This document shows, piece after piece, positions 2,561 through 44,876 of a stretch of 64,000 bases of DNA. Position 1 is the first letter of the stretch, and each line of letters starts with the position of its first letter. Under the pieces are notes generated by a model. That model was not told the origin of the DNA and ran no database searches. It saw nothing but the letters and a program-made list of their open reading frames with translations. This DNA is from Candidatus Adlerbacteria bacterium. Its GTDB lineage: Bacteria; Patescibacteriota; Minisyncoccia; Phycocordibacterales; SBAW01. The stretch spans positions 3,830 through 67,829 of the forward strand of contig CAISEE010000046.1 in NCBI GenBank assembly GCA_903884345.1, read 5' to 3'. Both the position numbers and the translations under genes were made by a program.

Positions 2561-3235
2561 TCAACAATTCGTGTAGGCCGCACTGACGGTATCGTTGAGC
2601 GGACACACGTTAATCTCGCCGGTGGTGGTGATTTTGACGAGGCGACTCGAGCTACCGGCGCTGATGCGCACGTAGGCACTGTCGTACGTCTCGGCCAGCT
2701 TCACACCACTCGAGTAGAACGAGGCATACTTGGCGTCCGGGTTGGGACGCTGAAAGATGATCGACGCGTACGTAATGGTCGCAGACCCGGTCGTATCATC
2801 GGCACCGTTACAGCGAAACGTCGACGGTGGCAGGTGCATACACACCTCGCTGACTGAGTAGCCGTTACTGAGGTTAAAGACCTTCACAACCTCGTTCACA
2901 TCCAGGGCGCTGTTGCCGTTGATATCGGCAAAGAGCGTGTAGTTCTGCGTACTGTTCCCAAAATAAAGGCCGTAGGCAGGCACCGCATTTGGCGAGGCGG
3001 CAGAGCGAAGCACGCTGATGCCGTACACCTGCGTCTGGCGCACCGACAGCGAGACCCCGTAGGCAAGGCTGCGCAATACGGTCGAACTATCAAAACTCGA
3101 CTGCCGAAACACGACGAACGCGGTGATGACGGTGATGATTGCCGCGACCGCCAAAAGTTCGATCAGCGTAAACCCCGCCGTAGCCGAGGTCACGCGCCGG
3201 TTAGAAAAGTGAGAGTGATGAGAAAAAATTGACAT
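2561..3235 (-). CDS. Minor pseudopilin with prepilin-type N-terminal cleavage/methylation domain
   Basis: TAGFTLIELLAVAAIITVITAF motif. Start at 3235 (MSIFSHH) or 3259; overlaps the pilD 3' end. Confidence 0.7.
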   Translation of the reverse strand: MSIFSHHSHFSNRRVTSATAGFTLIELLAVAAIITVITAFVVFRQSSFDSSTVLRSLAYGVSLSVRQTQVYGISVLRSAASPNAVPAYGLYFGNSTQNYTLFADINGNSALDVNEVVKVFNLSNGYSVSEVCMHLPPSTFRCNGADDTTGSATITYASIIFQRPNPDAKYASFYSSGVKLAETYDSAYVRISAGSSSRLVKITTTGEINVCPLNDTVSAAYTNC

Positions 3236-3977
3236 GGAAGAAGTAGACGAGAAACGCACCGAACGCGAGAAACGGCGCGAATGGAATCTCGTTCTTCATT
3301 GTAAACCGCTTCCCTCCCGATTTCCACGGTATCGACGAGAACAACATGAGCAAGATGCCGACCAGAGCGCCACTCCACACGGCAACAAGGAGCGCGGTGA
3401 ATCCTGCGCTGAGCCCCAGGAGCCAGCCCAACGAAATCTCAAATGCGCTATCGCCCCACCCCATCCAGCGACCCATCGAGACGAGCGAAAGGAGGAACAG
3501 TGGCAGTGCCAACAGCGGCCCCGCGTAGAGTGCCGCAAACGACGGCGGCCACGCGAGAGCAATTGTCGCAAGACTAAGTAGCACCAACGTGCCCGAACAC
3601 GACCACGGGATGACGGTGTGGCGCATGTCGTAGACCACGATGAAAAGGATCGTCAGCCACACCAAGAGCGACACGGCATAGGCGAGCGGCGTCGGGTGCA
3701 GCACATAGACCCCTACCGAGAGGCCCGCAGCCAACACCTCGACCAAGGGGTACTGCGCCGAGATGCGGGTCTTGCAGTACCTACAGCGACCAAAAAGAAA
3801 GAGCCACGAAAAAATCGGCACGAGGTCGATTGCCGCGAGGGTGTGACCGCAGCGCATGCAGTGCGAGCGCCCACCCATCCCCTGCCCTGTATTGAATCGA
3901 AATGACAGCGCGTTAAGAAAGCTGCCCAATATGGCACCCAGGCCCGCGGCGCAAATTGCCAAGAAGGGGTCGTACAT
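3201..3977 (-). CDS. pilD: Prepilin peptidase (A24 family, PilD)
   Basis: N-terminal CxxC...CxxC zinc motifs (HCMRCGHTL...CRYCKTRI), conserved GWGD, DLVPIFSW, multiple TM segments. Likely start MYDPFLAI at 3977. Confidence 0.85.
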   Translation of the reverse strand: MYDPFLAICAAGLGAILGSFLNALSFRFNTGQGMGGRSHCMRCGHTLAAIDLVPIFSWLFLFGRCRYCKTRISAQYPLVEVLAAGLSVGVYVLHPTPLAYAVSLLVWLTILFIVVYDMRHTVIPWSCSGTLVLLSLATIALAWPPSFAALYAGPLLALPLFLLSLVSMGRWMGWGDSAFEISLGWLLGLSAGFTALLVAVWSGALVGILLMLFSSIPWKSGGKRFTMKNEIPFAPFLAFGAFLVYFFHVNFFSSLSLF

Positions 3978-10830: not shown

Positions 10831-11517
10831 TTATGATTGCGGTGTCGCACCTGTGGGCGTCGTCGTGGACGATTGCGTCGTGTCTGAAGCGGGCGCCGCT
10901 GCCGATTGGTCGGTCGAGGCCGCGCTGGTGCCCAAGGTCTTGGCGAAGTTGATGACCGACGGGTCGACTGTCGCGGTGACGTTAAAGGTTACGGCGCCGG
11001 TACTACCCACGGTAATATTGTTGAACGAGACTTCCTTTAGGAGCTTGTTGGCGCCGAACTGGTCGCTCTGGAGCGCCACAGTCGCGAAGCTGTCTGCCTG
11101 CCCGTCGAGGGTAATCTGCGCCGACCCGTCGGCCTGAAGCTCGTAGTCAAAACTGCTGAACTGGACCGCCTGGAGTGTCTGACTGCCCAGGAAGGTAAAG
11201 AGTGCCGAGGGCGCCACGTGCTTTTGCAGCAGCCCCTCTGCGTTTTGGATGCGCAAGTCGAGGCGACTCATCTCGGCGATGGTGTCGGGATTGAACGCGT
11301 CCTGTGCTTTTTTGAGCGAGTCCGTCTTCGTGGCGATCGAGGTCGTGAGCACCTGCGAGTAGCCGAATGCCGCGCCGGCCAATACGATCGAGGCGATGAA
11401 GACGAGCAGCGCGATGATGAAAAAGATGCTGCTGAAGGCGCCTTCACTGCTGGCGTAATAGCTACCGCTATCGAGCGACTGCTTGGGAATGAAAGATGCC
11501 GGAGCCTGAGAATCCAT
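10831..11517 (-). CDS. PilN-like type IV pilus biogenesis protein
   Basis: N-terminal TM helix after a short cytoplasmic segment; immediately downstream of pilM; Ser/Thr-rich C-terminus. Confidence 0.55.
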   Translation of the reverse strand: MDSQAPASFIPKQSLDSGSYYASSEGAFSSIFFIIALLVFIASIVLAGAAFGYSQVLTTSIATKTDSLKKAQDAFNPDTIAEMSRLDLRIQNAEGLLQKHVAPSALFTFLGSQTLQAVQFSSFDYELQADGSAQITLDGQADSFATVALQSDQFGANKLLKEVSFNNITVGSTGAVTFNVTATVDPSVINFAKTLGTSAASTDQSAAAPASDTTQSSTTTPTGATPQS

Positions 11518-11579: not shown

Positions 11580-12656
11580 CTAATTTTGGAGGAGCCGCAG
11601 CGCGAGCCCGATGGCCACCGTAAACTCCGGCCCCGCCTCCTCGAACCCCTTCTGGAGGAACGCCGGCACGCGGATCTTGCTAAATGGGTCGGACATGCGC
11701 ACCTCGTTTTGGATTTTGCTTTGTGCGAACTCTTTGAGCCCGCGAATGTCGGTGCCGCCACCGGTAAAGACCAAGGCGCTGAGTGATTGGTTGGTGCGCG
11801 ACTCGTACGCCGCCGCCGTGCGCGCGATCTCGGAAAACAGCGGCATGAGCGAGAGCTCGATCGATTTCTTGAGATCCTCGGTGGTCGCCATCTCGGATAT
11901 GCCGGTGAGCCCCACCTTGCGCTTGTACTCCTCGGCCTTGCTGACCGAGATGCCCAGGGCGCGCGAGACCGCCAACGTCAAATCTTGGCTGCCGTGGTTG
12001 ATGATATGACTCTCGTGGATGAGCCCGCGCTCGACGACGTAGAACTTGGTCGTGGCCGCGCCGAGGTCGACCACCGCCACGGGCACAATCCCCCGGTCGA
12101 GCGCCGCACGCACCGCGCTGAAGACCTCGATCTCGAAGAAGCTCACATTGAGCCCTGCTTCGCTCGCGATGGTACGAAACTTTTGTATCGTATCGTTGTG
12201 GATAACCACGAGCAGCACCTCGATTTTGGAGGGGTCTTTTTTGTCGGGGCCGATGACGAACCAGTCGAGCTGCACCTCGTTAATCGGCACGGGAATATAC
12301 TTGCGCGCCTCAAGCGGGATGACTTGCGCCAACTGCTTTTGCACCACCGCGGGCAGACGCAGGATTGAGATAAGGCTCGAGGAGTATGGTATCGAGAGCG
12401 CCGCGTTTTGCGTCGTGACGTTGGCTTCGCGAATCAAATCCTTCAATGCTTCGGCGACTTTTTCGGCCGGCAGTGACGTCGCGCGGCCGATTTCGCTGCC
12501 TGCGTACGGCCCCAGCGCCACCGCGCCGTAGGTTTCGAGCACGACGGTGCCTTTGTCTTTGCGCAGCTGCACTAACTTAATCGACGACGTGCCGATGTCG
12601 ACGCCCAGCGCGCTTTTTTGTTCGGGAGCGAAGAGTGATGCGAAGGAGAATGCCAT
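11580..12656 (-). CDS. pilM: Type IV pilus assembly protein PilM (actin-like ATPase fold)
   Basis: 358 aa; LGVDIGTSSIKLVQL N-terminus typical of PilM/FtsA-like proteins; first gene of the operon. Confidence 0.85.
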   Translation of the reverse strand: MAFSFASLFAPEQKSALGVDIGTSSIKLVQLRKDKGTVVLETYGAVALGPYAGSEIGRATSLPAEKVAEALKDLIREANVTTQNAALSIPYSSSLISILRLPAVVQKQLAQVIPLEARKYIPVPINEVQLDWFVIGPDKKDPSKIEVLLVVIHNDTIQKFRTIASEAGLNVSFFEIEVFSAVRAALDRGIVPVAVVDLGAATTKFYVVERGLIHESHIINHGSQDLTLAVSRALGISVSKAEEYKRKVGLTGISEMATTEDLKKSIELSLMPLFSEIARTAAAYESRTNQSLSALVFTGGGTDIRGLKEFAQSKIQNEVRMSDPFSKIRVPAFLQKGFEEAGPEFTVAIGLALRLLQN

Positions 12657-29293: not shown

Positions 29294-29365
29294 GGGCGCA
29301 TAGCTCAGCGGTAGAGCAGCCGTCTTATACACGGCCGGTCGTAGGTTCGATCCCTACTGCGCCCA
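29294..29365 (+). tRNA. tRNA with anticodon UAU (predicted tRNA-Ile decoding AUA)
   Basis: Acceptor GGGCGCA/TGCGCCC; D-arm GCTC-AGCGGTA-GAGC; anticodon stem GCCGT/ACGGC with loop CTTATAC; T-arm GTAGG-TTCGATC-CCTAC. Confidence 0.75.
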
Positions 29366-29445
29366 CAAAGATTGCATGCCGCCGACGAATGCGGTATGGT
29401 CAGCCACAGAATAGTCTCCTCAACACACAGAATGGAAAGTTCCCG

Positions 29446-32480: not shown

Positions 32481-32564
32481 GAGAGTTACATAGTACCATT
32501 TTGACAAGTTCAGGACAAAAAAAGGCCGTTGCGGTATTGTACAGGTACGCAGTATATAAATAGT

Positions 32565-33008
32565 ATGAATTTGATCGAACACAAAAAGGCGCACCTCAAC
32601 TTCGAGCTCATCAAAGAGTTCGAGGCCGGGATCGAACTCTTGGGCCACGAGGTCAAAACCCTGCGCAGTCGCCACGGCAAGATCGAGGGCGCACACGTCA
32701 TCGTCCGCGGTGGCGAAGCCTTTTTGGTGGGCGCGTCGCTCCCACCCTACCAGCAGACCAACACCCCCGGCGACTACGACCCCGACCGCACGCGTCGCCT
32801 CTTGCTGACCAAGCAGGAGCTGGCTGAGTTGGCCGAATATGAACAGCAGAAGGGCTTGACAATCATCCCTATTTCTGTCTATAATAAAGGTGCGAAGTTG
32901 AAGGTACGCATCGCGGTCGCCCGCGGTCGTAAGAAGTTCGATAAGCGCGCGGTCCTCAAAGAACGCGATGTGAAACGAGAGATCGACCGCACCTTGAAAA
33001 ATCAATAA
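32565..33008 (+). CDS. smpB: SsrA-binding protein SmpB
   Basis: AHLNFELIKEFEAGIELLGHEVKTLRSRHGKIEGAHV...DPDRTRRLLLTKQELAEL. Confidence 0.9.
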   Translation: MNLIEHKKAHLNFELIKEFEAGIELLGHEVKTLRSRHGKIEGAHVIVRGGEAFLVGASLPPYQQTNTPGDYDPDRTRRLLLTKQELAELAEYEQQKGLTIIPISVYNKGAKLKVRIAVARGRKKFDKRAVLKERDVKREIDRTLKNQ

Positions 33009-33399
33009 CTGAATGAGTGTTCGAAAGTGGTTCAAAAAAACCACGCTCTAGCCCGGCATTACTCGGGCAGAGAATTTGACGAGTATTTGACATGAGTTCG
33101 ACACCGCGTACCAATGACTGCTCGGTAACTCCTCGTACCGAGACTGACGTCCTCTTGTGGACGGAAGCCTTCCTCGCCCTTGGGGTGCCCGCCGTCACCG
33201 CTGTGGTGATTCGCGCACAGGCCGGACGCTTCGGCATCCTGACCGTGATGGAGGAGGACAAACACCGAGGTCTATCCGTGATCCACTAAGCAGCCCCGGC
33301 GCACCGGCATGTACTCCTTACATCGCCGGTCGCCACCACTTTCGAGCACTCAGTCGCTGGCATTCATTTTGAGCGAATATCTTTCGATGTTCTTTCAGA

Positions 33400-33780
33400 G
33401 GGGATGCCAGGCATAGACAATGGGACAGTTCGTCGGATGCGCGAAGTAGAAGACCAGATCTTCTTAAAAAGCTGGAAAACCTACCTGCAGCCAAAACTGC
33501 ATCGCCGTATTTCGCGGCGAACGACTTCCAGTTCGCGCTCGCGCGAGCCTAACGTCGCACTCTCTCCTTCTCGCCTGAGGCTGGAGACCGGGTGTTATAT
33601 ATCAGGACTATAGTCGCGAATCGTCCGCCTTGCGACGCGACCGAACATTAGAGGCTGCAATCGACGCTAGTTTCGTTCGCTTCATATAGCGTCGGTTAAA
33701 GAAACAAAAAAGCGCGACTACACTCCGTAGAAGCTCCGATAGCTCCCCGTTGCACGCGGGTTCAACTCCCGCCATCTCCA
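33400..33780 (+). ncRNA. ssrA: tmRNA (ssrA)
   Basis: 3' end ACGCGGGTTCAACTCCCGCCATCTCCA nearly identical to E. coli tmRNA 3' end. 5' GGGGATG pairs with CATCTCC including a G3:U pair. Internal tag-like frame GCG AAC GAC TTC CAG TTC GCG CTC GCG CGA GCC TAA (ANDFQFALARA*); adjacent to smpB. Confidence 0.8.
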
Positions 33781-33929
33781 CTCGACTCGCCTGCCTTTAT
33801 GGCAGACTCGCTCGTGGCAAGCCACCGATTCGGAATAGCCGACTTGGTGGCTTTTCACGTTGGCGAATCGAGTGTCCCGAGCGAAGTCGAGGGACTTGAT
33901 TTGAATACTAGGCGCGCGAAAATAGAGAC

Positions 33930-34197
33930 ATGTATTTCGTGTACATGATCAAGAATGCGGCAGACGAACTGTATGTTGGCGTAACCGAAAACCCGCAGCA
34001 CAGACTCGCCTACCACAACGAAAAAACGCGGCGCACAGTATACGAAACACTCCTCGACCTACGCTATCGTATTTTTGGAAGAGCACTCTTCCCTCTCCGA
34101 CGCGCGTCAGCGTGAAATACAAATCAAGAAATGGCGGCGAGAAAAGAAAGAGGCGCTTATTGTTAGGTACGCAGCAGGTCTTGAAACTCGACAATAA
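33930..34197 (+). pseudogene. GIY-YIG nuclease superfamily protein (YhbQ/UPF0213-like), frameshifted in an A6 run
   Basis: Frame 0 MYFVYMIKNAADELYVGVTENPQHRLAYHNEK, then +1 frame RGAQYTKHSSTYAIVFLEEHSSLSDARQREIQIKKWRREKKEALI*. Frames join if A6 at 34021..34026 were A5. Confidence 0.7.
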
Positions 34198-34458
34198 AGA
34201 AGCCCGCGGTTCCGATCACGCATTCGCCAAGAAACATTTGTTATAAACGAAACGGTTTGCGTGAAAAAAGTAGAAGTTGTATTCTTACCCATGGGTGGAC
34301 GGGGCAAGATCGCTACGACTCCTCGGAGTTTAAACATATAGCGCACTTCGTCCACCCACCTCGACGTGCCACCCGGCGCGTCGATTTTTTGTATTAGGTC
34401 GCTCGTACATTGACTTTGTGTGCTGTATATGCTATAATAACAATAGTAGGAGGTTCAC

Positions 34459-34863
34459 ATGGACTTTGAACTGGAGAACGTCGGCATCGGCCGTCATCCG
34501 CGATACATTATGACGATCGAGACCAAACGGTTTGGTCGGCATCGCTGGCAGCTCGACGACCTGGTGCCGCGGACTTTGATGAAGCAGGTATGCAACGGCT
34601 CGCACGCGATGTGGTGGCAAGATTCCGACGAGCATTTTTCAATCGAGGTGCCGAGCGAAGACGTCGCGCAGTTGCTCGCCGACGCCATCGAGTCATGGCT
34701 TGAGGCCCAGGTTGTTGCGGACGCGGAGTTCGACGCATCCGTGAAAGCGGCGCAGGAAGCGGAGGACGCACAATCGCATCAAACTTCATTGCGCAAACAC
34801 GTCTATGCCGCTCTCGCGGTAACGGCGTGCATCATCGCAGTATTTGCGCTGATTGTTTGGTGA
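34459..34863 (+). CDS. Hypothetical protein with C-terminal TM anchor
   Basis: Strong SD AGGAGG 5 nt upstream of ATG; acidic helical domain; C-terminal VYAALAVTACIIAVFALIVW. Confidence 0.6.
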   Translation: MDFELENVGIGRHPRYIMTIETKRFGRHRWQLDDLVPRTLMKQVCNGSHAMWWQDSDEHFSIEVPSEDVAQLLADAIESWLEAQVVADAEFDASVKAAQEAEDAQSHQTSLRKHVYAALAVTACIIAVFALIVW

Positions 34864-34942
34864 CGAATGTGGCAGACGCCGCGAAAGGGTTGGCACGAAT
34901 GACTTACCTCATTTCGGGCCAACCTTTTTTTATTCCCCGCCA

Positions 34943-35368
34943 CTACTCCCGTACGAAGTGGGTGGTCTCGTGGTAGGCGTCGTAATTTACCGTGAGCTCT
35001 TCGCCCGCTTTGATGTCGCGCAGCGCGACGAAAGTCTCGCCCCGGTCGTGCGTCACCATGTTGGGAGTCTTCGAGTGATTCAAAAAGTAATTTTTGGTAA
35101 GCGCGTCCATGCCGTAGCTGGGGACGTGGTAGACGCCATCTTGAAGTGCGCAGAAGTCGCGCACCAACTCTTTTGCCGCCTCGTCGCATGGGTACAAGTC
35201 GAGCTCCTCTTTTTTTATCTTGAGTAACGTGCCAAACGGGTCGGCATGTTCAAGCGGGTCGGTGCCCTGGGGTATGGTGCGGATGGCGACGAGCCCCACG
35301 CCGTGTGTCGTGACCCCGAGGCGGCAATAAATTTTCGTGAGTGATTCGAGGAATTCCTTCTTGCGCAT
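34943..35368 (-). CDS. SET-domain protein (putative protein-lysine methyltransferase)
   Basis: FLNHSKTPN (NHSxxPN) and RDIKAGEELTVNYD SET core motifs; 141 aa. Confidence 0.75.
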   Translation of the reverse strand: MRKKEFLESLTKIYCRLGVTTHGVGLVAIRTIPQGTDPLEHADPFGTLLKIKKEELDLYPCDEAAKELVRDFCALQDGVYHVPSYGMDALTKNYFLNHSKTPNMVTHDRGETFVALRDIKAGEELTVNYDAYHETTHFVRE

Positions 35369-35404
35369 GAAACTCTACTCTACCCCACCCACGGCCCCGC
35401 TACC

Positions 35405-35441
35405 AGATAGAAAAATCCCGGGGCCTGGTGGGGCCCCGGGA
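35405..35441 (-). terminator. Rho-independent terminator
   Basis: On the minus strand: TCCCGGGGCC-ccacca-GGCCCCGGGA followed by TTTTTCTATC. Confidence 0.7.
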
Positions 35442-35460
35442 CTAACGAACGAGCTCTGCG

Positions 35461-35595
35461 CTACTCGTTCGTCATGCCTTTCGTCACGAACGCATCGAAT
35501 TGATCGATCGAAAACTTGCCGAGAGTTCGCAGAGCACGTCCGCAACGGGACGCGATCGCAACAGACCGGTAGCACAACTTCTTCAACGTCAGCAT
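35461..35595 (-). CDS. Candidate small protein (44 aa), not in ORF track
   Basis: MLTLKKLCYRSVAIASRCGRALRTLGKFSIDQFDAFVTKGMTNE; AAGGAT SD-like 8 nt upstream; strong terminator directly downstream. Confidence 0.3.
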   Translation of the reverse strand: MLTLKKLCYRSVAIASRCGRALRTLGKFSIDQFDAFVTKGMTNE

Positions 35596-36161
35596 GGTGG
35601 AAATCCTTTCCAAAAGAGCCTGTCACCATGACAGACTCGTGAATGCCAACCGCAATACTACACTCATTGTTTACAGTACGTCAATAGCCCCACATAATTG
35701 ACAAACATGAAGATACGGTGTATTTATGACAGCGGAAGTTCACCAATATGTGTGTTTCGCGTGAATCCATCGAAAACTGGGATACGGTAGACATAATGTG
35801 CACAACAACGACCTACTTGCACCTCATCGCTCAAGACTCACCGAGTGATGTGCGACCGAAGAAAACTCCGAACACAGGACGAAAACAGAAACAGCTCGCG
35901 AAAACGAGAACTTATTGGCTCGAAGGAACCACGGTCGTACGTACGACCTCGAGAATATCGACCTCGTCGGTATTCATGCGCGGGTGTTCCCTTTGAAACC
36001 GCCGATTTCGCTGGCCTGCTCTGCGCCGGCATGCACATGCAGAAACAGGAAATTGCTTGCGATGGACAAGCTCAATCCTGATGAGACGAGACTGTTCTTG
36101 ATTGCCGTCGAGCACGCAATACGAGTGCGCGACGCGCAGAAAGCCGCCGCCTGATTACCGG

Positions 36162-36194
36162 CCGCCCCACACTCTGGGGCGGTCTACTTTTTTA
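36162..36194 (+). terminator. Rho-independent terminator ending a probable noncoding transcript
   Basis: CCGCCCCA-cactc-TGGGGCGG followed by TCTACTTTTTTA. Confidence 0.7.
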
Positions 36195-36249
36195 TACCCA
36201 CTCCCCTTTCACCTCGTACACACGCGTGCTCGTGTATCCTTTGACGCCT

Positions 36250-36447
36250 ATGATGGAACTACAAAAGATGCAGAATCTGCTGGGGACGCTCAAGTACCCG
36301 CTGACCAAAGAGCAACTCCTGCAGGAGATTACCAACCATGGACTCTTGGAGTCGCTCCCACTCGTAAACAGCCTGCCCGATCAGCCGTTTACCAATGCGA
36401 ACGACATCCTATCCAAATTGAAAGACACAATGGGAGAGATGCATTAA
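36250..36447 (+). CDS. DUF2795-like small protein
   Basis: MMELQKMQNLLGTLKYPLTKEQLLQEITNHG...LPDQPFTNANDILSKL resembles DUF2795 layout. The track ORF starts at GTG 36226. Confidence 0.55.
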   Translation: MMELQKMQNLLGTLKYPLTKEQLLQEITNHGLLESLPLVNSLPDQPFTNANDILSKLKDTMGEMH

Positions 36448-36592
36448 CCTCAATATCACGGGAGGCGTGGCATAACAAACCTTGGGTAGTTCTGCACCCA
36501 CGGTTCGCGAAGCGGCTCGGCAAGACGCGGCGTCGCGGCGACATGACAATAAAAAATGGTACGGTAAAACAAACGTAAGGGACAGTGTGGCG

Positions 36593-37438
36593 ATGTCGAA
36601 ATGGCTCACCGTTGATGTCGGGGAAGACGACGTCTCGATAAACGGCAACCCTATCAACTACAACGAGGAGATACAGTGCGGGTTCGGATTCGTCATATTC
36701 AGTCGGCGAAGCGGTGCTTTGGAGGTGACGAGGTATTCACGTGCGGGAAACGAAAAGTACCGCACCGAACTGCGCCGTCGCGGGAAGTGGCGAATCGGTT
36801 CGGATTGCGCGTACCGCATGATTTTGCCGCAGGAGGAATCAAACCTGGTGCGGCGACTCATTCGTCTGTCGTGCCTACCAATGGCGATACTCCACCCCCA
36901 CGAGTTCGGCGAGGAGGTGGTTCTTCACACGATGGACGTGGACAAGCGGCGGAGGCTGCTCGTCGACACTGACGAGTACATCCAGGGCCCCTATGCGGGC
37001 CCGTGGCCGGTCACTCTGTCGACGGCAAGCTACGCCATCGTGTCCGAACACTTCGACCGAGACGGCGCGAACACACGACCCCGCATAAGCGCCGTCCATG
37101 TGTGGGGAGAACCGAACACCACAATCATGAGAAGCATCATCGCAAAGCACCTCTTCGGTGAGGTGGCCAACCACGAGTACCTATGGGTCGCACACAACGA
37201 CTCTAACCGTCCCGAGGCCGAGGCCTGGGTCGCGCGATGGTTCGCGTTCGGCTCGGTGTCGAGCGACCCTCCCACGCGGCGCTTCATGACGATCAACGGG
37301 CAGATCGTCGCCGAGCATCAAAAACATCCGGACTGGATTCGGCGCGGACCCTTCCGCCTGCTCTCTGACCTTAACCGACGATATCCGGGGATTTTGCCCC
37401 ACGAGTTCGACACACCGAAAGGATACCGCAGACGATAA
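36593..37438 (+). CDS. Hypothetical protein (orphan)
   Basis: 282 aa from MSKWLTVDV; no recognisable motifs. Confidence 0.5.
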   Translation: MSKWLTVDVGEDDVSINGNPINYNEEIQCGFGFVIFSRRSGALEVTRYSRAGNEKYRTELRRRGKWRIGSDCAYRMILPQEESNLVRRLIRLSCLPMAILHPHEFGEEVVLHTMDVDKRRRLLVDTDEYIQGPYAGPWPVTLSTASYAIVSEHFDRDGANTRPRISAVHVWGEPNTTIMRSIIAKHLFGEVANHEYLWVAHNDSNRPEAEAWVARWFAFGSVSSDPPTRRFMTINGQIVAEHQKHPDWIRRGPFRLLSDLNRRYPGILPHEFDTPKGYRRR

Positions 37439-37521
37439 CCACTACGTTCATTCGCATATGTGCAACCGAAGCTTCGCGCGGCCTTCCGTGCGGAGCTTCT
37501 CTCGACTATACTTATCGCTGT

Positions 37522-38007
37522 ATGCAACTCTACCGGTGTAGCCCCATCGACAGCGAGGCAGGTTTGCGCGAGGCAATCGCCTACGTCGCCGACGCCTCAT
37601 CGCAGCTGTGCAAAAAAGTCACCGGCGAAGTTTTGCCCATCACGTCCCTCACCGTCTTTTCGCACTACCCAGCTGAGTTCGACTTTTTGAAATCGCTCCT
37701 GCCCACACTTGGCACCCTGGTCGGCGGCATCTTTGGCCCCCGCATCGTTTTAAACGAGCCGATTGTGGCTGGCCCGCACACCATCACCCACCTGCGCATC
37801 CGCGAGCCCGACCCCTACCGCGCACACGTCGGCAGCAACGACTACGACATCCCCGACTACACCGCGTTTAAAGAAACGTATCTTGCCGCGCATCCCGAGA
37901 ACCTGCGCATCATCCCGCGCGAGGGGTACGAATTGCTCGAGTTCTTCGACCCCGATTTCGACGTATTAGGCTACGTCCTCTCGGACCCGGCACGGTCGAA
38001 GAAATAG
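37522..38007 (+). CDS. Hypothetical protein (orphan)
   Basis: 161-aa ORF; no recognisable family. Confidence 0.5.
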   Translation: MQLYRCSPIDSEAGLREAIAYVADASSQLCKKVTGEVLPITSLTVFSHYPAEFDFLKSLLPTLGTLVGGIFGPRIVLNEPIVAGPHTITHLRIREPDPYRAHVGSNDYDIPDYTAFKETYLAAHPENLRIIPREGYELLEFFDPDFDVLGYVLSDPARSKK

Positions 38008-38084
38008 TCACGAGGAGCGTTTGACAAATCGCATGTTTGGTGTATAGTCAGTAGCAGCCGCACACCAAATGAAAGAGGCAACGG

Positions 38085-38285
38085 ATGTCGATTTTCGTAA
38101 CCGACCAACAAGAGATTGATGCTGAAGACCCGAACGAGTACAACAACGCGCGCGGAGGCGACGCGCTGGCGAGCCTCGTGCTGTTTATGCTCTGCATCAT
38201 CGGGGGACTCTATTTCCTCGGGATGGGCATCATCTCGCTGTGTGAGCAGATGACGCCCGCGCTCTCGGTACTCAACGTGATATAA
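38085..38285 (+). CDS. Small membrane protein (66 aa)
   Basis: AAGAGG SD 5 nt upstream; one TM; followed by a terminator at ~38340..38382. Confidence 0.45.
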   Translation: MSIFVTDQQEIDAEDPNEYNNARGGDALASLVLFMLCIIGGLYFLGMGIISLCEQMTPALSVLNVI

Positions 38286-38339
38286 TGACTAAACGATCAC
38301 GGGCCCGTCCCTCCCCCGGACACAAACCTGTGGCAGAAC

Positions 38340-38382
38340 AAACTCGGCGGCGCCCTTCGGGATGCCGCCTTTTTCTTTTTGT
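38340..38382 (+). terminator. Rho-independent terminator
   Basis: GGCGGCGCCC-ttcg-GGATGCCGCC followed by TTTTTCTTTTTG. Confidence 0.6.
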
Positions 38383-38476
38383 CGGCACAATGTTGACAGA
38401 AACGTATAATACGTGTCTTGTAAAAAATAGGTTCGCCGTCACGGAAAGCCGCAAAGTCTTCGAAAAGGTTCACACG

Positions 38477-38722
38477 ATGACATTCACTATTGCGTTGATA
38501 GTCCTCTTCGCAGCAGGCGTACTCTGCGCGAAGTTAAACTCCCGCGGTAACTATACGCTGAAAGAATCCGCGAGAACATGGATTCTTCCGCTGCTCCTCG
38601 GCATTGTATTCGGTATTGTGTATGGTTGGGCCTGGTCGCTGTTGGGCGCCGTCGTCCTCTTCGCTGGCTACGCCTCGTACTATATATTCATCGTTTGGCT
38701 GCTCCAAACGACACCCGAATAA
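38477..38722 (+). CDS. Small membrane protein (81 aa)
   Basis: AAAGG SD; starts MTFTIALIVLFAAG; two TM helices. Upstream TTGACA and TATAAT hexamers at ~38388..38405. Confidence 0.5.
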   Translation: MTFTIALIVLFAAGVLCAKLNSRGNYTLKESARTWILPLLLGIVFGIVYGWAWSLLGAVVLFAGYASYYIFIVWLLQTTPE

Positions 38723-38731
38723 TGCTCGACC

Positions 38732-38768
38732 CGGCGGCGCCTAACAAGCGCCGCCGATTACTTTTTTT
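38732..38768 (+). terminator. Rho-independent terminator
   Basis: CGGCGGCGC-ctaacaa-GCGCCGCCG followed by ATTACTTTTTTTA. Confidence 0.75.
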
Positions 38769-39606
38769 ACTGTGCGTTCGCGTACGCCTCGAACCCGTGC
38801 ATCAATTTTTTCGTCACCTCGCCGACCGCGCCGGTGCCGATTTTTGTATCATCTATTTGAACGACGGGCACGATGTCTTTGAAGCTTGAGGTAAGAAAGG
38901 CTTCGTCGGCCTGGAGCATCTCGTCGACCGAGACGGGGCGCTCCTCGACCGTACCTGCCGCACGCGCCACTTCAAGCGCTACTTTGCGGGTGATGCCTTC
39001 GAGGATGCCGATGTTTGGCGTGATGACAATGCCGTCTTTGACGATGAAGAAGTTGCTGGTGGCGCACTCGTAGACCCCGCCGTCGTGGACGTAGAGGATT
39101 TCGAGCGCCTGCTTTTCTTTGCGCTGCCCCTGGAGCAACACCGCCTCGATGTAGTTGACGGTCTTGTAGCGCGGGAACTGTCGCTCGAACTCGGCGGTGA
39201 TGAGCGAGCAGCCGTCGGTAAAGTTACTCGCCTCGATCGGCTTAAACTCCTCGCACAATATATAGAAGGTGGGCGTGCCTCGGTCGTACTCGATGCCCGC
39301 CTGCGCCGTGCCGCCCGTCAGAATAATGCGGAAGATCGACTCTTTGAATCCGTTCTTGGCATGGAGGTCCTCAAGAATTTGCCCGAACACCTCGTCGGTG
39401 ACGGGAATTGTGAGCTGCATCTCCCGGGCCGACATGCGAAAGCGCGCCGTGTGATCGGCCAGACGGAAGGGTTTGCCGTTTTTGGTCGCCAGCGCCTCGT
39501 AGATGCCAAAGCCGCGCAAGAGACCGATATCGCACACCGAAACCTTCGCCTCCGAAACCGGGATAATGTCGCCGTTGAGATAGCAGTACGTAGTCATGGG
39601 GTTCAT
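38767..39606 (-). CDS. Class IV aminotransferase (branched-chain amino acid / D-amino acid aminotransferase family)
   Basis: Fold-type IV motifs: FGxYE-like GFGIYEAL, catalytic Lys region YKTVNYIE, EGITR, AFLTSS. Possible start at 39597. Confidence 0.85.
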   Translation of the reverse strand: MNPMTTYCYLNGDIIPVSEAKVSVCDIGLLRGFGIYEALATKNGKPFRLADHTARFRMSAREMQLTIPVTDEVFGQILEDLHAKNGFKESIFRIILTGGTAQAGIEYDRGTPTFYILCEEFKPIEASNFTDGCSLITAEFERQFPRYKTVNYIEAVLLQGQRKEKQALEILYVHDGGVYECATSNFFIVKDGIVITPNIGILEGITRKVALEVARAAGTVEERPVSVDEMLQADEAFLTSSFKDIVPVVQIDDTKIGTGAVGEVTKKLMHGFEAYANAQ

Positions 39607-39647
39607 ACTACCACCATCAAACCCACACTTCTATGCACCCTGCTGCA

Positions 39648-41468
<1,821 letters not shown>

Positions 41469-41547
41469 ACTAGTAACGTCGCCCCGCTGCTCCGCGGATT
41501 ATGTGGTTCATACCGTATTAACAAACACCAAGCCGGGTGAGTTTCAG

Positions 41548-42912
41548 ATGATTCTATCGTATACTTTCAACATGATCGAAACCGCGCCCGTGATCGAAAT
41601 TAACATCGAGCCCAAGATCCTCGAAAAAAAGCACTCCACCCGCTTTGGCCGCCTGCTGCGCATTTTGGGCCCGGGCCTCATCACGGGCGCCGCCGACGAC
41701 GATCCATCGGGCATCGCCACCTACTCGCAAACGGGCGCACAATTCGGCTTCGGCCAGCTGTGGACGGCGCTCTACCAGCTGCCGCTCATCATCGCCGTCC
41801 AAGAGGCGTGTGCGCGCATCGGTGTGGTGACCGGCAAAGGTCTTGCTGGCGTCGTCAAAGAGCACTACTCGAAGAGACTCCTTACCGCGGTCGTCATTTT
41901 GGTCGTCATCGCCAACACCATCAACATCGGCGCCGACATCGGAGCGATCGCGAGCGCCTCGCAGCTCGTGTTTGACTTGCCCTTCGCCCTCTACGCCATC
42001 CTTTCGGCCATCCTGGTCGTAGCTCTGGAAATTCTCATCAGCTACAAAAACTACGTGAAGTTCCTGAAGTTCCTCACCCTCTCACTTCTGGCCTACCCCG
42101 TGACCGCACTCATCGTGCACGAGCCGTGGAAGCAGATTTTTGCCGCGACCCTCATCCCACACATGGAGTTTAATTTCGCGTTCTTCTTTATCGTCGTCGG
42201 TGTCTTCGGCACCACCATCACGCCGTACATGTTCTTCTGGCAGGCGTCGGGCGAAGTCGAAGAAGAGATTGCCAATCACCACCTGGCGCAAAAAGGCGGC
42301 ACCCCGCACGGTATCAAAAAGTTTCTCAAGCAAGTGCGCCTGGACACCACCATCGGCATGGTTGCCGCAGAAATTGCGCAGTGGTTCATCATCATCACGA
42401 CCGCGACCATCCTCTTTAGCCACGGCATCACCAACATCACTAGCGCCGCCGACGCTGCCAAAGCGCTCGAGCCACTGGTGCGCTCCTTCCCCAACTCGGG
42501 CCAACTTGCCAAAGACATCTTCGCCGTCGGCATCATCGGCCTCGGCCTCTTGGCGATCCCCGTCCTCGCTGCCTCGACCGCCTACGCCATGTCCGAGGCC
42601 TTCGGCTGGCGCGAAGGACTCTACCGCAAATTCCGCAAGGCGCGCGGCTTCTACGGCGTCATCATCGTCGCGACCTTCATCGGCCTTCTTATGAACTTCG
42701 TCGGCATCAATCCAATTAAGGCACTCGTCTTTGCCGCCGTCTTCAATGGTGTGACTGCCGTCCCCCTTCTCTTCCTCATCAATCGCATCAACGCCAACGA
42801 GGCCATCCTCGGTAAATACAAAGGCGGCGCACTCTCGCAAACCGTCATCTGGATCACCTTCGCCATCATGTCCTTCGGTGCCCTCGGCCTCTTCTACACC
42901 CTGCTGGCGTAG
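41548..42912 (+). CDS. mntH: NRAMP-family divalent metal cation transporter (MntH-like)
   Basis: GPGLITGAADDDPSGIATYSQTGAQFGFGQLW Nramp signature; ~11 TMs; GGGTGAG SD before ATG 41548. Confidence 0.85.
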   Translation: MILSYTFNMIETAPVIEINIEPKILEKKHSTRFGRLLRILGPGLITGAADDDPSGIATYSQTGAQFGFGQLWTALYQLPLIIAVQEACARIGVVTGKGLAGVVKEHYSKRLLTAVVILVVIANTINIGADIGAIASASQLVFDLPFALYAILSAILVVALEILISYKNYVKFLKFLTLSLLAYPVTALIVHEPWKQIFAATLIPHMEFNFAFFFIVVGVFGTTITPYMFFWQASGEVEEEIANHHLAQKGGTPHGIKKFLKQVRLDTTIGMVAAEIAQWFIIITTATILFSHGITNITSAADAAKALEPLVRSFPNSGQLAKDIFAVGIIGLGLLAIPVLAASTAYAMSEAFGWREGLYRKFRKARGFYGVIIVATFIGLLMNFVGINPIKALVFAAVFNGVTAVPLLFLINRINANEAILGKYKGGALSQTVIWITFAIMSFGALGLFYTLLA

Positions 42913-42934
42913 GCACATCAGCAAAATACGCTTC

Positions 42935-42956
42935 CTTGCGGAGGTCAGTCCTCCGT
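42935..42956 (+). repeat. Repeated terminator-hairpin motif (copy 1)
   Basis: ttgcggaggtcagtcctccg is identical over 20 nt to 59495..59514; the stem GCGGAGG/CCTCCGC follows the mntH stop. Confidence 0.7.
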
Positions 42957-42960
42957 ATGG

Positions 42961-43557
42961 CTATTTACCGCACACACCCGGGGCCCACAGGCCTTTTTGC
43001 TGTTGCTTGGCCTCGGCCTGCGCTGCATTAAATTCGGCTTGATACTTGTAGGGCACGTCGTAGGTGTACTCGTGGCCATAACCCTCGCTGATTAAATACT
43101 CGTCGACGAGGAATCCTTGCGGGTCGCTGTTAAGGGGCGCCCAGACATAGGCGAGCGTGCGGCCGTACTTGTCGAGCACTCCCTGCGATGGGTCAAACTC
43201 CAAGTGCACCGACTGGCCTGTAAGAAGGAGTTTGGTCTGCGCCGATGCTTCGCGGCCAAAGCACTGCACAGGCTTTCGCGGGTCGACCACCTCGGGCGTA
43301 TCGACGCCGATGAGGCGCACCGTGGTCGTGGCACCCTGGTGCATCACTACAATGGTGTCGCCGTCGATGACGCGAATAACCGGCTCCCAGACCGGGGTCG
43401 AGGTTGCGAGGGCGGCAGCAGAAACGGGTATTTCAGCCTGCGAGTGCGGGTTGCGGGCGAGAAACGGGTTGTCTCCATATGCCGATAGCTGCTGGGTCAG
43501 CACGGCCGCGCCAAGCACCACCAATGAAACCAGCATCCCGTACGTGCGTCTGCTCAT
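42961..43557 (-). CDS. Staphylococcal-nuclease-like (SNase/thermonuclease) protein, membrane-anchored/secreted
   Basis: RVIDGDTIVV...VRLIGVDTPE...YGRTLAYV SNase motifs. N-terminal TM from start MSRRTYG at 43557. Confidence 0.8.
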   Translation of the reverse strand: MSRRTYGMLVSLVVLGAAVLTQQLSAYGDNPFLARNPHSQAEIPVSAAALATSTPVWEPVIRVIDGDTIVVMHQGATTTVRLIGVDTPEVVDPRKPVQCFGREASAQTKLLLTGQSVHLEFDPSQGVLDKYGRTLAYVWAPLNSDPQGFLVDEYLISEGYGHEYTYDVPYKYQAEFNAAQAEAKQQQKGLWAPGVCGK

Positions 43558-43707
43558 ATCCCTATAATACCCCGCAGCCCTTGCGCTCCAAAACAACCTG
43601 TGATACATTCCTGTGCGGAGAGGCACCCAGAAACATCTAAGGGCGTGGTACCGAGATCGGTAGCCGTACTAGTACGTTCGCCGCCGAGCGGGCCGCCTCT
43701 CCACCCA

Positions 43708-43738
43708 CCACCTCCCCAAAAGGAGGTGTTTTTCTTTA
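43708..43738 (+). terminator. Terminator-like hairpin upstream of infC promoter
   Basis: CCACCTCC-ccaaaa-GGAGGTG followed by TTTTTCTTT. Confidence 0.5.
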
Positions 43739-43740
43739 TA

Positions 43741-43769
43741 TTGCCCGAAAAAGGCTTTGCTGGTATACT
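43741..43769 (+). promoter_or_regulatory. Sigma-70-like promoter for infC-rpmI-rplT
   Basis: TTGCCC-17 nt-TGgTATACT (extended -10). Confidence 0.5.
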
Positions 43770-43786
43770 CAAGGTCAACTAAAACT

Positions 43787-44305
43787 GCTTTGGAAACCCG
43801 AATCAATCACCATATCCGTGCGAAGGAAGTCCGCGTTGTCGGCGCCGAAGGCGAGAACCTGGGCGTTTTGGCCCTGTCTGACGCAATCGCCCGTGCCGAG
43901 GAGCTCAATCTCGACCTCGTCGAGATCTCGCCGAATGCCGTTCCCCCGGTTGCAAAAATCATGGAGTATGGTAAATTCCAGTACGAGCAGGAGAAACGAC
44001 GCCGTGAAATAAAGGCGAAATCTCACACCACCGAGACCAAAAGCGTACAGGTAAAGATCGGAACGGGCGAAAACGACCTTAATCTTAAAGCAAAACGGAC
44101 TGCGGAGTGGCTTCGAGAGGGGCACCGCGTCAAAGTGGACCTCTTCCTGTGGGGGCGGTACAAGTACATGGAATTCGCCTTCCTCAAAGAGCGATTGGAG
44201 CGATTTTTGAAACTCATCCCCGAGGAGTACAAGATCAGCGACCCCATCATCAAGAGCCCGAAAGGTCTCACCACCGTGATCGAGCGAGCAGGAAAGCCAA
44301 AGTAA
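43787..44305 (+). CDS. infC: Translation initiation factor IF-3
   Basis: INHHIRAKEVRVVGAEGENLGVL...EISPNAVPPVAKIMEYGKFQYE. Probably a non-AUG start (TTG 43787, or nearby) downstream of the promoter; the track ORF starts at 43757 inside the promoter. Confidence 0.85.
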   Translation, partial: ALETRINHHIRAKEVRVVGAEGENLGVLALSDAIARAEELNLDLVEISPNAVPPVAKIMEYGKFQYEQEKRRREIKAKSHTTETKSVQVKIGTGENDLNLKAKRTAEWLREGHRVKVDLFLWGRYKYMEFAFLKERLERFLKLIPEEYKISDPIIKSPKGLTTVIERAGKPK

Positions 44306-44525: not shown

Positions 44526-44876
44526 ATGGCACGCGTAAAAGGAGGAGTCACATCAACAAAGCGACGTCACAATATCTTGGCAATGACCAAGGGTTACCGC
44601 TTTGGCCGCAGCACCAAGAAGAAGCAGGCCCGCGAGGCGATTTTCCACGCCGGCAAGAGCGCGTTTGCGCACCGCCGCGACAAGAAGAACGACTACCGCA
44701 AGCTCTGGAACGTCCGCATCAACGCCGGCCTCGACCAGATCTCGGAGACCTTCTCGTACAGCAAATTCATCGGCGCGCTTAAGAAGGCCAACATCGAGCT
44801 CGATCGCAAGATTCTCTCGACCCTCGCCGAAAAGGCACCCGAGACCTTCGCTCGCGTCGTCAAAAAGGTCTCCTAA
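44526..44876 (+). CDS. rplT: 50S ribosomal protein L20
   Basis: MARVKGGVTSTKRRHNILAMTKGYRFGRS... Confidence 0.9.
   Translation: MARVKGGVTSTKRRHNILAMTKGYRFGRSTKKKQAREAIFHAGKSAFAHRRDKKNDYRKLWNVRINAGLDQISETFSYSKFIGALKKANIELDRKILSTLAEKAPETFARVVKKVS

Follow-up and report, generated by a model that had tools for sequence, protein, structure and literature searches.

In a Candidatus Adlerbacteria genome, a block of small genes (33930-38722) directly follows ssrA, the gene of the transfer-messenger RNA (tmRNA), and the question that this locus raises is whether these genes came in as an element integrated at the 3' end of ssrA. The DNA analysed is a 64-kb stretch of contig CAISEE010000046.1 and is called the window here, and an earlier sequence-only reading of it had described the block as a degraded integrated element or a lineage-specific accessory island. 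The block is most probably the left half of a ~10-kb lineage-specific variable segment (33784-43789) between ssrA and infC that carries no recognisable mobile element. It adds one more example to a well-known kind of genomic feature, the ordinary variable region. The units that make up the block are small and mostly monocistronic; each has a promoter-like site and an intrinsic terminator of its own, and codon usage is native. The genes encoding a SET-domain protein and a UPF0213-type GIY-YIG protein are old neighbours of ssrA that are shared with different relatives, the GIY-YIG gene having just been lost, and the DUF2795 protein, the proteins of 281 and 134 amino acids (aa) and two small membrane proteins are cargo confined to the strain or lineage.

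Comparison of the ssrA-infC gap with related genomes

Loci anchored on SmpB were collected from species-representative genomes (29 loci) and from metagenomes (33 loci), and the open reading frames (ORFs) of the window were compared with them by tblastn. The nearest loci belong to metagenome-assembled genomes (MAGs) of Candidatus Adlerbacteria, Paceibacterota and Parcubacteria, with SmpB identities of at most 75%, which places the window in a bacterium of the Candidate Phyla Radiation, of Paceibacteria/Adlerbacteria type. The backbone is kept in about 20 relatives, with ftsH-smpB-ssrA on the left and infC-rpmI-rplT on the right; the right flank of the window comprises infC (~43790-44305), rpmI, rplT (44526-44876), an LDcluster4 gene and further genes.

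Synteny breaks at the gap between ssrA and infC, which is different in each of the Paceibacteria relatives. The gap ranges from almost nothing to ~8.9 kb in the relatives and measures ~10 kb in the window (33784-43789), and its cargo is different in nearly every genome, even among the closest relatives, whose FtsH is 82-85% identical. Measured from the end of smpB to the start of infC, which includes ssrA (~0.4 kb) and the spacers, the distance is 0.5-1.0 kb in the loci L021, L025, L008 and L014 and ~0.9 kb in L050, with little room beyond ssrA; it is 1.7-5.5 kb in L010, L019, L011, L001, L012 and L004, 8.0-9.3 kb in L013, L007, L015, L020 and L024, and 10.8 kb in the window. The cargo of the relatives, surveyed in two halves, one of which covers the best 25 of 35 matched families, includes AI-2E transporters, ECF sigma factors, LOG/SLOG proteins, LCAT-like lipases, TspO, FIST-histidine kinases, GST and an NHL-repeat protein; the families listed include no recombinase or transposase.

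The anchors of the variable segment and the part of it to the right of the block (38767-43789) are as follows, the genes of the right part being assigned by the Pfam matches of the essentially identical contig L030:

33400-33783, plus strand: ssrA (tmRNA; Rfam RF00023), left anchor of the variable segment
38767-39606, minus strand: class IV aminotransferase gene
39648-41468, minus strand: glmS
~41548-42912, plus strand: Nramp gene
~42961-43536, minus strand: SNase gene
~43790: start of infC, right anchor of the variable segment

Unlike infC-rplT, the class IV aminotransferase, glmS, Nramp and SNase genes lie near smpB or ssrA in no relative. The sequence-only reading had ended the block at 38722 and had let housekeeping genes resume at 38767, which is correct by function, but synteny with the relatives resumes only at infC (~43.79 kb). 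The position 38722 marks a change in gene type and is not the right boundary, since the variable segment reaches infC. As for the block being lineage-specific, the presence/absence comparison agrees with it, the position being variable among all relatives examined.

Search for the signature of an integrated element

Three features define islands at ssrA (PMC3146451): ~20 bp from the 3' end of ssrA recur as a direct repeat at the distal boundary, a recombinase module lies by attL, and synteny is disrupted. The ssrA genomic islands of Dehalococcoides are known examples of such ssrA-targeted islands (PMC3146451; PMC2764846). Of these three features, only disrupted synteny downstream of ssrA is seen in the window, where ssrA ends at 33783 and the cargo begins at 33930. 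In searches with blastn-short, exact k-mers and mismatch-tolerant patterns, no exact repeat of at least 12 nt of the ssrA 3' region was found in the 64-kb window. The terminal 23-mer and 16-mer of ssrA matched only themselves with up to 3 mismatches, and the terminal 12-mer with up to 2 mismatches occurred at chance frequency, with no plus-strand copy in 33784-43790. The sequence-only reading had pointed to the region near 38.7 kb as the place for a direct repeat of the ssrA 3' end, and there is none in the window, mismatches allowed.

No recombinase, transposase, phage or defence family was found in the segment, for which the ORFs of the block were searched with Pfam, NCBIfam, PHROGs and PADLOC and the remainder through the Pfam matches of L030. 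A phage origin of the block was rejected, PHROGs having given weak GIY-YIG matches only, and so was a defence system, for which the PADLOC match was at noise level and fell on a transmembrane (TM) segment.

Repeats of the expected kind were observed in two relatives. In L011 (11665-11862), a 14-nt exact direct repeat of the locus's own ssrA 3' end (18 nt with one indel) lies 165 nt downstream, with ~0.007 such matches expected by chance in the locus, and this repeat could be a scar of the att type. In addition, ~850 nt with ORFs separate smpB from ssrA in L011. In L013 (10895-13310), the terminal 12-mer of ssrA (CCCCACTTCCAC) occurs twice more in direct orientation, at 12066 and 13294; the copies share 16 nt, and each closes an islet of ~1.2 kb and is followed by a hairpin. 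A GST-like gene lies in one islet and two unknown genes lie in the other; neither islet has a recombinase. The arrangement is similar to the tandem ssrA-island scars of Dehalococcoides. Insertion targeted to ssrA may therefore operate in the clade, and these repeats are no evidence on the window itself.

The window resembles the Dehalococcoides islands in having lineage-specific cargo directly downstream of a single-copy ssrA with disrupted synteny, and L011 and L013 resemble them in carrying the ssrA terminus as short direct repeats, which L013 has in tandem. Unlike them, the window has neither an ssrA repeat nor a recombinase, its codon usage is native and its cargo is shared vertically with relatives, and the islets of L011 and L013 have no recombinases.

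Chromosomal hot spots without integrases, also called regions of genomic plasticity, lie between conserved core genes. The window is like these in its conserved flanks (ssrA and infC), in the genome-specific content and length of the gap, in the lack of mobility genes and in small accessory genes of mixed origin. It differs from them in that the comparison is made at genus or family divergence (SmpB at most 75%) rather than between strains of one species, and because of this divergence long-term rearrangement is inseparable from true hot-spot insertion.

Composition and transcription signals of the block

The block is mildly GC-poor (0.546 vs 0.582). The GC content at third codon positions (GC3) of its genes is 0.70-0.78, inside the background of 0.75 +/- 0.075, indicating that the low GC and the compositional deviation come mainly from the high non-coding fraction. 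The atypical composition that had been claimed for the block thus holds, slightly, for GC and tetranucleotides but not for the GC3 of the genes, which is native. With GC3 at ~0.75 and GC2 at ~0.40, GC-frame analysis is powerful here. It backs the coding of the 134-aa, SET, DUF2795, 281-aa, 161-aa and 66-aa genes and, more weakly, of the 81-aa gene; the signal is flat over 35610-36240 and fades in the second half of the GIY-YIG gene.

Terminator-like sites are more numerous in the block than expected (15 vs 7.3 +/- 2.7), as are promoter-like sites (7 vs 3.3 +/- 1.6), the latter being consensus matches only. From left to right, the units are:

33784-33860, plus strand: ssrA trailer with two hairpins (33790-33805; 33820-33852, then TTTT), likely the ssrA terminator, read from the sequence
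33930-34197, plus strand: UPF0213/YhbQ-type GIY-YIG gene, frameshifted (Pfam GIY-YIG, 3.3e-09, on the N-terminal half, 33930-34115)
34361-34394, plus strand: intrinsic terminator closing the GIY-YIG unit (10-bp stem, then TTTTTT)
34410-34863, plus strand: promoter-like site, AGGAGG Shine-Dalgarno sequence and gene of a 134-aa acidic protein with a C-terminal TM anchor (coding sequence 34459-34863)
34943-35368, minus strand: gene of a minimal SET-domain protein of 141 aa (Pfam SET, 1.1e-10)
35414-35595, minus strand: 44-aa basic ORF (35461-35595) and strong terminator (35443-35414), upstream of the SET gene on the same strand
35655-35698, both strands: overlapping divergent promoter-like sites (plus, TTTACA-17-CATAAT, 10/12; minus, TTGACG-18-TAGTAT, 9/12)
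35700-36195, plus strand: unit of ~490 nt without a convincing long ORF, with a flat GC-frame signal and a terminator (36160-36184) at its end
36250-36447, plus strand: gene of a DUF2795-like protein of 65 aa (Pfam DUF2795, PF11387, E = 2.3e-05)
36593-37438, plus strand: gene of a 281-aa protein of a rare family, without a Pfam or fold match
37522-38007, plus strand: gene of a 161-aa VOC-superfamily protein, YecM-like (glyoxalase/dioxygenase fold)
38021-38375, plus strand: promoter-like site (38021-38048), gene of a 66-aa single-TM protein (38085-38285) and GC hairpin with T-run (~38345-38378)
38382-38756, plus strand: promoter-like site (38382-38410), gene of an 81-aa three-TM protein (38477-38722) and terminator (38732-38756)

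The layout that the sequence-only reading had given, a small-gene cluster downstream of ssrA with several intrinsic terminators and a gene-free stretch, was recovered in all its listed features. These are the frameshifted GIY-YIG gene, whose split in an A6 run was seen against an intact gene of a relative; the membrane-anchored acidic protein (134 aa, C-terminal anchor) with its strong AGGAGG Shine-Dalgarno sequence; the SET-domain methyltransferase, by Pfam profile and motifs; the 44-aa ORF with its own 12-bp terminator; the stretch of ~560 nt without coding potential, matched by the flat GC-frame signal over 35610-36240 and ended by the terminator at 36160-36184; DUF2795, just under the Pfam cutoff; the ORFs of 281 aa (282 aa in that reading) and 161 aa; and the two tiny membrane proteins, which are the 66-aa single-TM and 81-aa three-TM ORFs.

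Old neighbours of ssrA: the GIY-YIG and SET genes

The GIY-YIG gene carries a +1 frameshift in the A6 run 34021-34026, and its C-terminal half lies in another frame. An intact GIY-YIG domain of ~90 aa is absent in the window and is restored only after deletion of one A, which gives an 88-aa ORF that aligns gap-free from end to end with the intact gene of L009 (53/88 identical, 60%), indicating that the pseudogene arose by a very recent single-base frameshift. The L009 gene (88 aa, 11061-11327) has the same distance and orientation after ssrA as the window copy. Since 3 further assemblies of this population have the identical frameshift, a sequencing error is unlikely. The repaired protein matches the UPF0213 structures 1ywl and 1zg2 (E = 2e-06); it shares with these stand-alone UPF0213/YhbQ proteins the single-domain architecture of ~90 aa and differs from them in that the window copy is interrupted by the +1 frameshift.

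In L002, a GIY-YIG gene (958-1197; Pfam 1.7e-13) sits between smpB and ssrA. The stand-alone GIY-YIG genes around smpB/ssrA in L002 and L009 suggest an old linkage or the repeated insertion of this gene type there; we know of no earlier description of a linkage of GIY-YIG genes to smpB/ssrA.

The SET protein scores 42.3 bits against a Pfam cutoff of 22.4, and the motifs GxG (HGVGLV), NHSxxPN (FLNHSKTPN) and EELTVNY are readable in its translation, GxG, NHSxxPN and ELxF/YxY being what we take to be the defining motifs of the family. It is probably an active lysine methyltransferase, as predicted from these motifs. With its single SET domain of ~140 aa and its GxG, NHSxxPN and ELxxxY motifs it is like the minimal prokaryotic and viral SET lysine methyltransferases, and it is unlike them in that no solved relative is detectable by sequence. 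SET orthologs adjoin ssrA in convergent orientation in L001/L053 (58% identity, 12 nt from the ssrA end) and L004 (77%), and this adjacency in three genomes is a synteny feature without functional implication. The SET identity of 58-77% is comparable to that of SmpB (66-69%) and FtsH (80-84%) in the genomes with SET orthologs. The SET and GIY-YIG genes are thus shared with relatives at housekeeping-like divergence, indicating long residence by ssrA.

Restricted cargo and the divergent promoter-like region

The promoter-like site of the 134-aa gene (34410-34438, TTGACT-17-TATAAT) is the best of the region, with an 11/12 match and a TG extension. The gene has strong codon periodicity, and the protein, tail-anchored and without a match in Pfam, NCBIfam or PHROG, is a strict singleton, its sole match among 5.8 billion clusters being itself.

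The terminator of the 44-aa ORF has a 12-bp stem with 9 GC pairs; the ORF has a GC3 of 0.71 and no family match in Pfam, NCBIfam or PHROGs. The stretch 35610-36240 has no codon periodicity and a GC content of 0.508. For the unit 35700-36195, a known non-coding RNA was rejected, there being no Rfam match even at E <= 1 and a folding z of -2.7 with the terminator included, and a decayed gene was rejected as well, tblastx against all loci outside the same population being empty. The unit has no similarity in any fetched locus except L030-L033, which are from the same population and 100% identical. Within it, a 30-aa ORF (36062-36154; MDKLNPDETRLFLIAVEHAIRVRDAQKAAA) is coding-like (GC3 0.68, GC2 0.39), and 6 nt separate its stop codon from the hairpin at 36160; it could represent either a small gene or, upstream of DUF2795, a leader peptide. 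The DUF2795 match covers 48/54 profile positions at 24.6 bits (cutoff 25), and the codon periodicity of the gene is strong.

No promoter-like site of their own was detected for the SET and DUF2795 genes. From the divergent sites at 35655-35698, leftward transcription would pass the 44-aa ORF and its strong terminator before reaching SET, and rightward transcription would yield a leader-like RNA of 490 nt and meet a terminator before DUF2795. Such a layout of small ORF, terminator and gene would allow attenuation-type control, to judge from consensus matches only.

The promoter-like site at 38021-38048 matches in 11/12 positions, the 66-aa gene behind it has strong periodicity, and the hairpin that follows was read from the sequence. 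The 81-aa protein has weaker periodicity and a weak, sub-threshold match to DUF7670.

The 161-aa and 281-aa proteins

Both proteins had been taken to be without a recognisable family. For the 161-aa protein this did not hold: it belongs to a widespread family with 74 homologous clusters at 35-70% identity, found in the Candidate Phyla Radiation (CPR; Azambacteria, Woesebacteria) and in a Woesearchaeota archaeon, and has a VOC/YecM-like fold. The archaeal member, P0029, is annotated as Candidatus Woesearchaeota archaeon and is 52% identical, indicating that CPR bacteria and DPANN archaea both hold this VOC-fold family. The 161-aa protein itself gave no Pfam or NCBIfam match at E <= 0.1, and none of the 74 clusters has a Pfam domain. 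The fold is confidently that of the VOC superfamily (glyoxalase-type), nearest to YecM, with the paired beta-alpha-beta-beta-beta modules present. Invariant residues in the family alignment are S7, P8, I9, H48, E52, D97, G104, D107, E140 and Y151, of which H48, E52, D107 and E140 are candidate metal ligands, and the protein is probably a metal-dependent enzyme of a new sequence family of known fold. Membership in YecM by sequence was rejected, since the PDB profile search did not return 1k4n at E <= 10 and hhalign gave a probability of 14% against Escherichia coli YecM. The protein therefore differs from E. coli YecM (1k4n) and the VOC superfamily in having no sequence-level relationship with them, and in its distribution in CPR and DPANN.

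For the 281-aa protein (36593-37438) the claim stood in part: there is no Pfam match and the confident model has no fold match among solved or viral structures, but remote relatives exist. A word-indexed search returned an identical fragment only, and exhaustive phmmer over 1.84 billion representatives returned 24 relatives at E <= 1e-3, the best with 40% identity. These relatives share the N-terminal 100-230 residues, some of them inside proteins of 400-550 aa, and none of the 10 scanned has a Pfam domain.

A conserved pair of 281-aa and 161-aa genes was considered and rejected, the 160-aa ORF after the relative P0077 being the C-terminal half of a split P0076-like gene. In L078, a groundwater contig, P0077 (264 aa) and the overlapping 160-aa ORF (284-1536) correspond to the single 426-aa P0076, split by a frameshift.

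Integrity of the assembly

Contig L030 (22 kb), assembled from another sample, covers ftsH to rplT without gaps and differs from the window by three mismatches, which all fall in glmS, and L031 (an NCBI MAG) and L033 are 100% identical to the window over their overlaps, indicating that the arrangement is real. The contig L032 (3.5 kb) contains window positions 33777-36771 at 100% identity between 438 nt (3059-3496) and 63 nt (1-63) of unrelated sequence, its right junction (36771) falling inside the 281-aa gene. Either L032 was misassembled as a chimera, or it shows the region in a second, real context. The flank gave no phage match and no Pfam match, and a flank ORF considered as a HigB toxin was not supported by Pfam.

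Origin of the block

With an ordinary variable region as the probable answer, the gap would have been filled by repeated small insertions, partly targeted to ssrA as the L011 and L013 repeats suggest, together with rearrangement, and any insertion scars would have decayed later; the genes of the block would act independently of one another. Several observations weigh against this reading. Beyond the same population, the genome and metagenome scans returned no relative above ~75% SmpB identity, so that the age and order of gene gains and losses are not resolvable. The block is the strongest tetranucleotide outlier of the window (z = 2.6, rank 2/75) and its GC is ~2 standard deviations low, both of which would also fit older foreign DNA. 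L011 and L013 carry repeats of their own ssrA terminus, and in the window the scars of site-specific integration may have eroded. The left junction of L032 coincides with the final 5 nt (TCCAC) of ssrA, which, provided that the join is real, would suggest recombination at this position.

A rival explanation sees in the block what is left, after decay, of one or several elements that integrated site-specifically at the ssrA 3' end in the manner of the tandem ssrA islands of Dehalococcoides, with the recombinase and att repeat lost and the composition ameliorated. Its position immediately 3' of ssrA, the variability of the gap in all relatives, the repeats in L011 (14 nt, or 18 nt with one indel) and L013 (12-mer), the mild compositional deviation and the pseudogene beside orphan genes would all fit such a remnant, as would the fact that ssrA is a known island target where islands are defined by such repeats (PMC3146451). 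However, the window has no repeat of the ssrA end even with mismatches, recombinases are missing from the window and from the cargo families listed for the relatives, gene GC3 is native, the divergence of SET and GIY-YIG argues for long residence, and there is no phage or defence affinity, which together make this origin unlikely. Of the two descriptions in the sequence-only reading, the accessory island fits a lineage-specific, slightly atypical block at a variable site with a frameshifted GIY-YIG gene, but the degraded integrated element lacks its recombinase and repeat and would have to be reconciled with native GC3. It is similarly doubtful that the ssrA-infC gap of Paceibacteria is a hot spot served by trans-acting recombinases, at which islets enter at the ssrA 3' end leaving repeats of ~12-18 nt that erode, the block being an old array of this kind; if so, the array would carry both the rare 281-aa family and a CPR/DPANN-wide VOC family that lies outside Pfam and NCBIfam models. 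A functionally coupled module, for instance an operon that centres on the 281-aa and 161-aa genes, or a toxin or defence system, is highly improbable. These two genes are indeed adjacent on the same strand, 83 nt apart, and the divergent promoter-like region feeds two units of small ORF, terminator and gene, but homologs of the 161-aa protein occur in unrelated neighbourhoods without a 281-aa relative, no 161-aa neighbour accompanies the relatives of the 281-aa protein, no PADLOC match rose above noise, and the strands are mixed, with nearly every gene having its own terminator. That foreign metagenomic DNA was joined to ssrA by misassembly is barely credible: L032, with 33777-36771 between unrelated flanks, does indicate that chimeric joins of the region exist in public assemblies, but the gap-free span of L030 with its 3 mismatches, the full identity of L031 and L033 and the host-like GC3 speak against it.

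The preferred reading, a variable segment between ssrA and infC, identifies the ssrA flank as a compartment that varies in the tiny, otherwise highly syntenic genomes of Paceibacteria, and L011 and L013 give first hints of the tmRNA terminus as an attachment site in this group. One former orphan (161 aa) is placed in the VOC metalloenzyme superfamily in CPR and DPANN, and the 281-aa family, with a confident model without a structural relative, is a reasonable target for structural genomics. The VOC assignment and the rare 281-aa family are useful for annotation and not surprising; the significance lies mainly in CPR genome annotation, with no bearing on a long-standing open question.

The ssrA gene and its upstream flank

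The ssrA gene (33400-33783, plus strand) encodes a full-length tmRNA, matching Rfam RF00023 over the full model with 88.7 bits (E = 4e-33); ARAGORN reported no tmRNA at this position. Its 3' end has no encoded CCA (…CTCCAC-TC), and the trailer sequence CTCGACTCGC is common to the window, L001, L009 and L053. The putative tmRNA tag, with its frame read by eye, has ~21 codons and ends in ...FALARA.

SmpB is encoded upstream of ssrA at 32529-33008. The spacer between smpB and ssrA (33009-33399) measures ~390 nt in the window, vs ~48-160 nt in L004, L005, L006, L008 and L009. It is bracketed by a 21-nt inverted repeat (33011-33031 / 33335-33355, 90% complementary), folds with z = -5.4 (0/100 shuffles fold as well) and contains a coding-like 65-aa ORF (33092-33289) with GC at the three codon positions of 0.62/0.48/0.70. 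The spacer gave no family match and has no further copy in the window or the relatives; it could have been inserted as a small element, or it could form a structure for the processing of the smpB-ssrA transcript.

Farther upstream, between conserved genes and ftsH, a tRNA-Ile gene with the anticodon TAT (UAU) lies at 29294-29366, and a tRNA-Ile with this anticodon is uncommon in bacteria.

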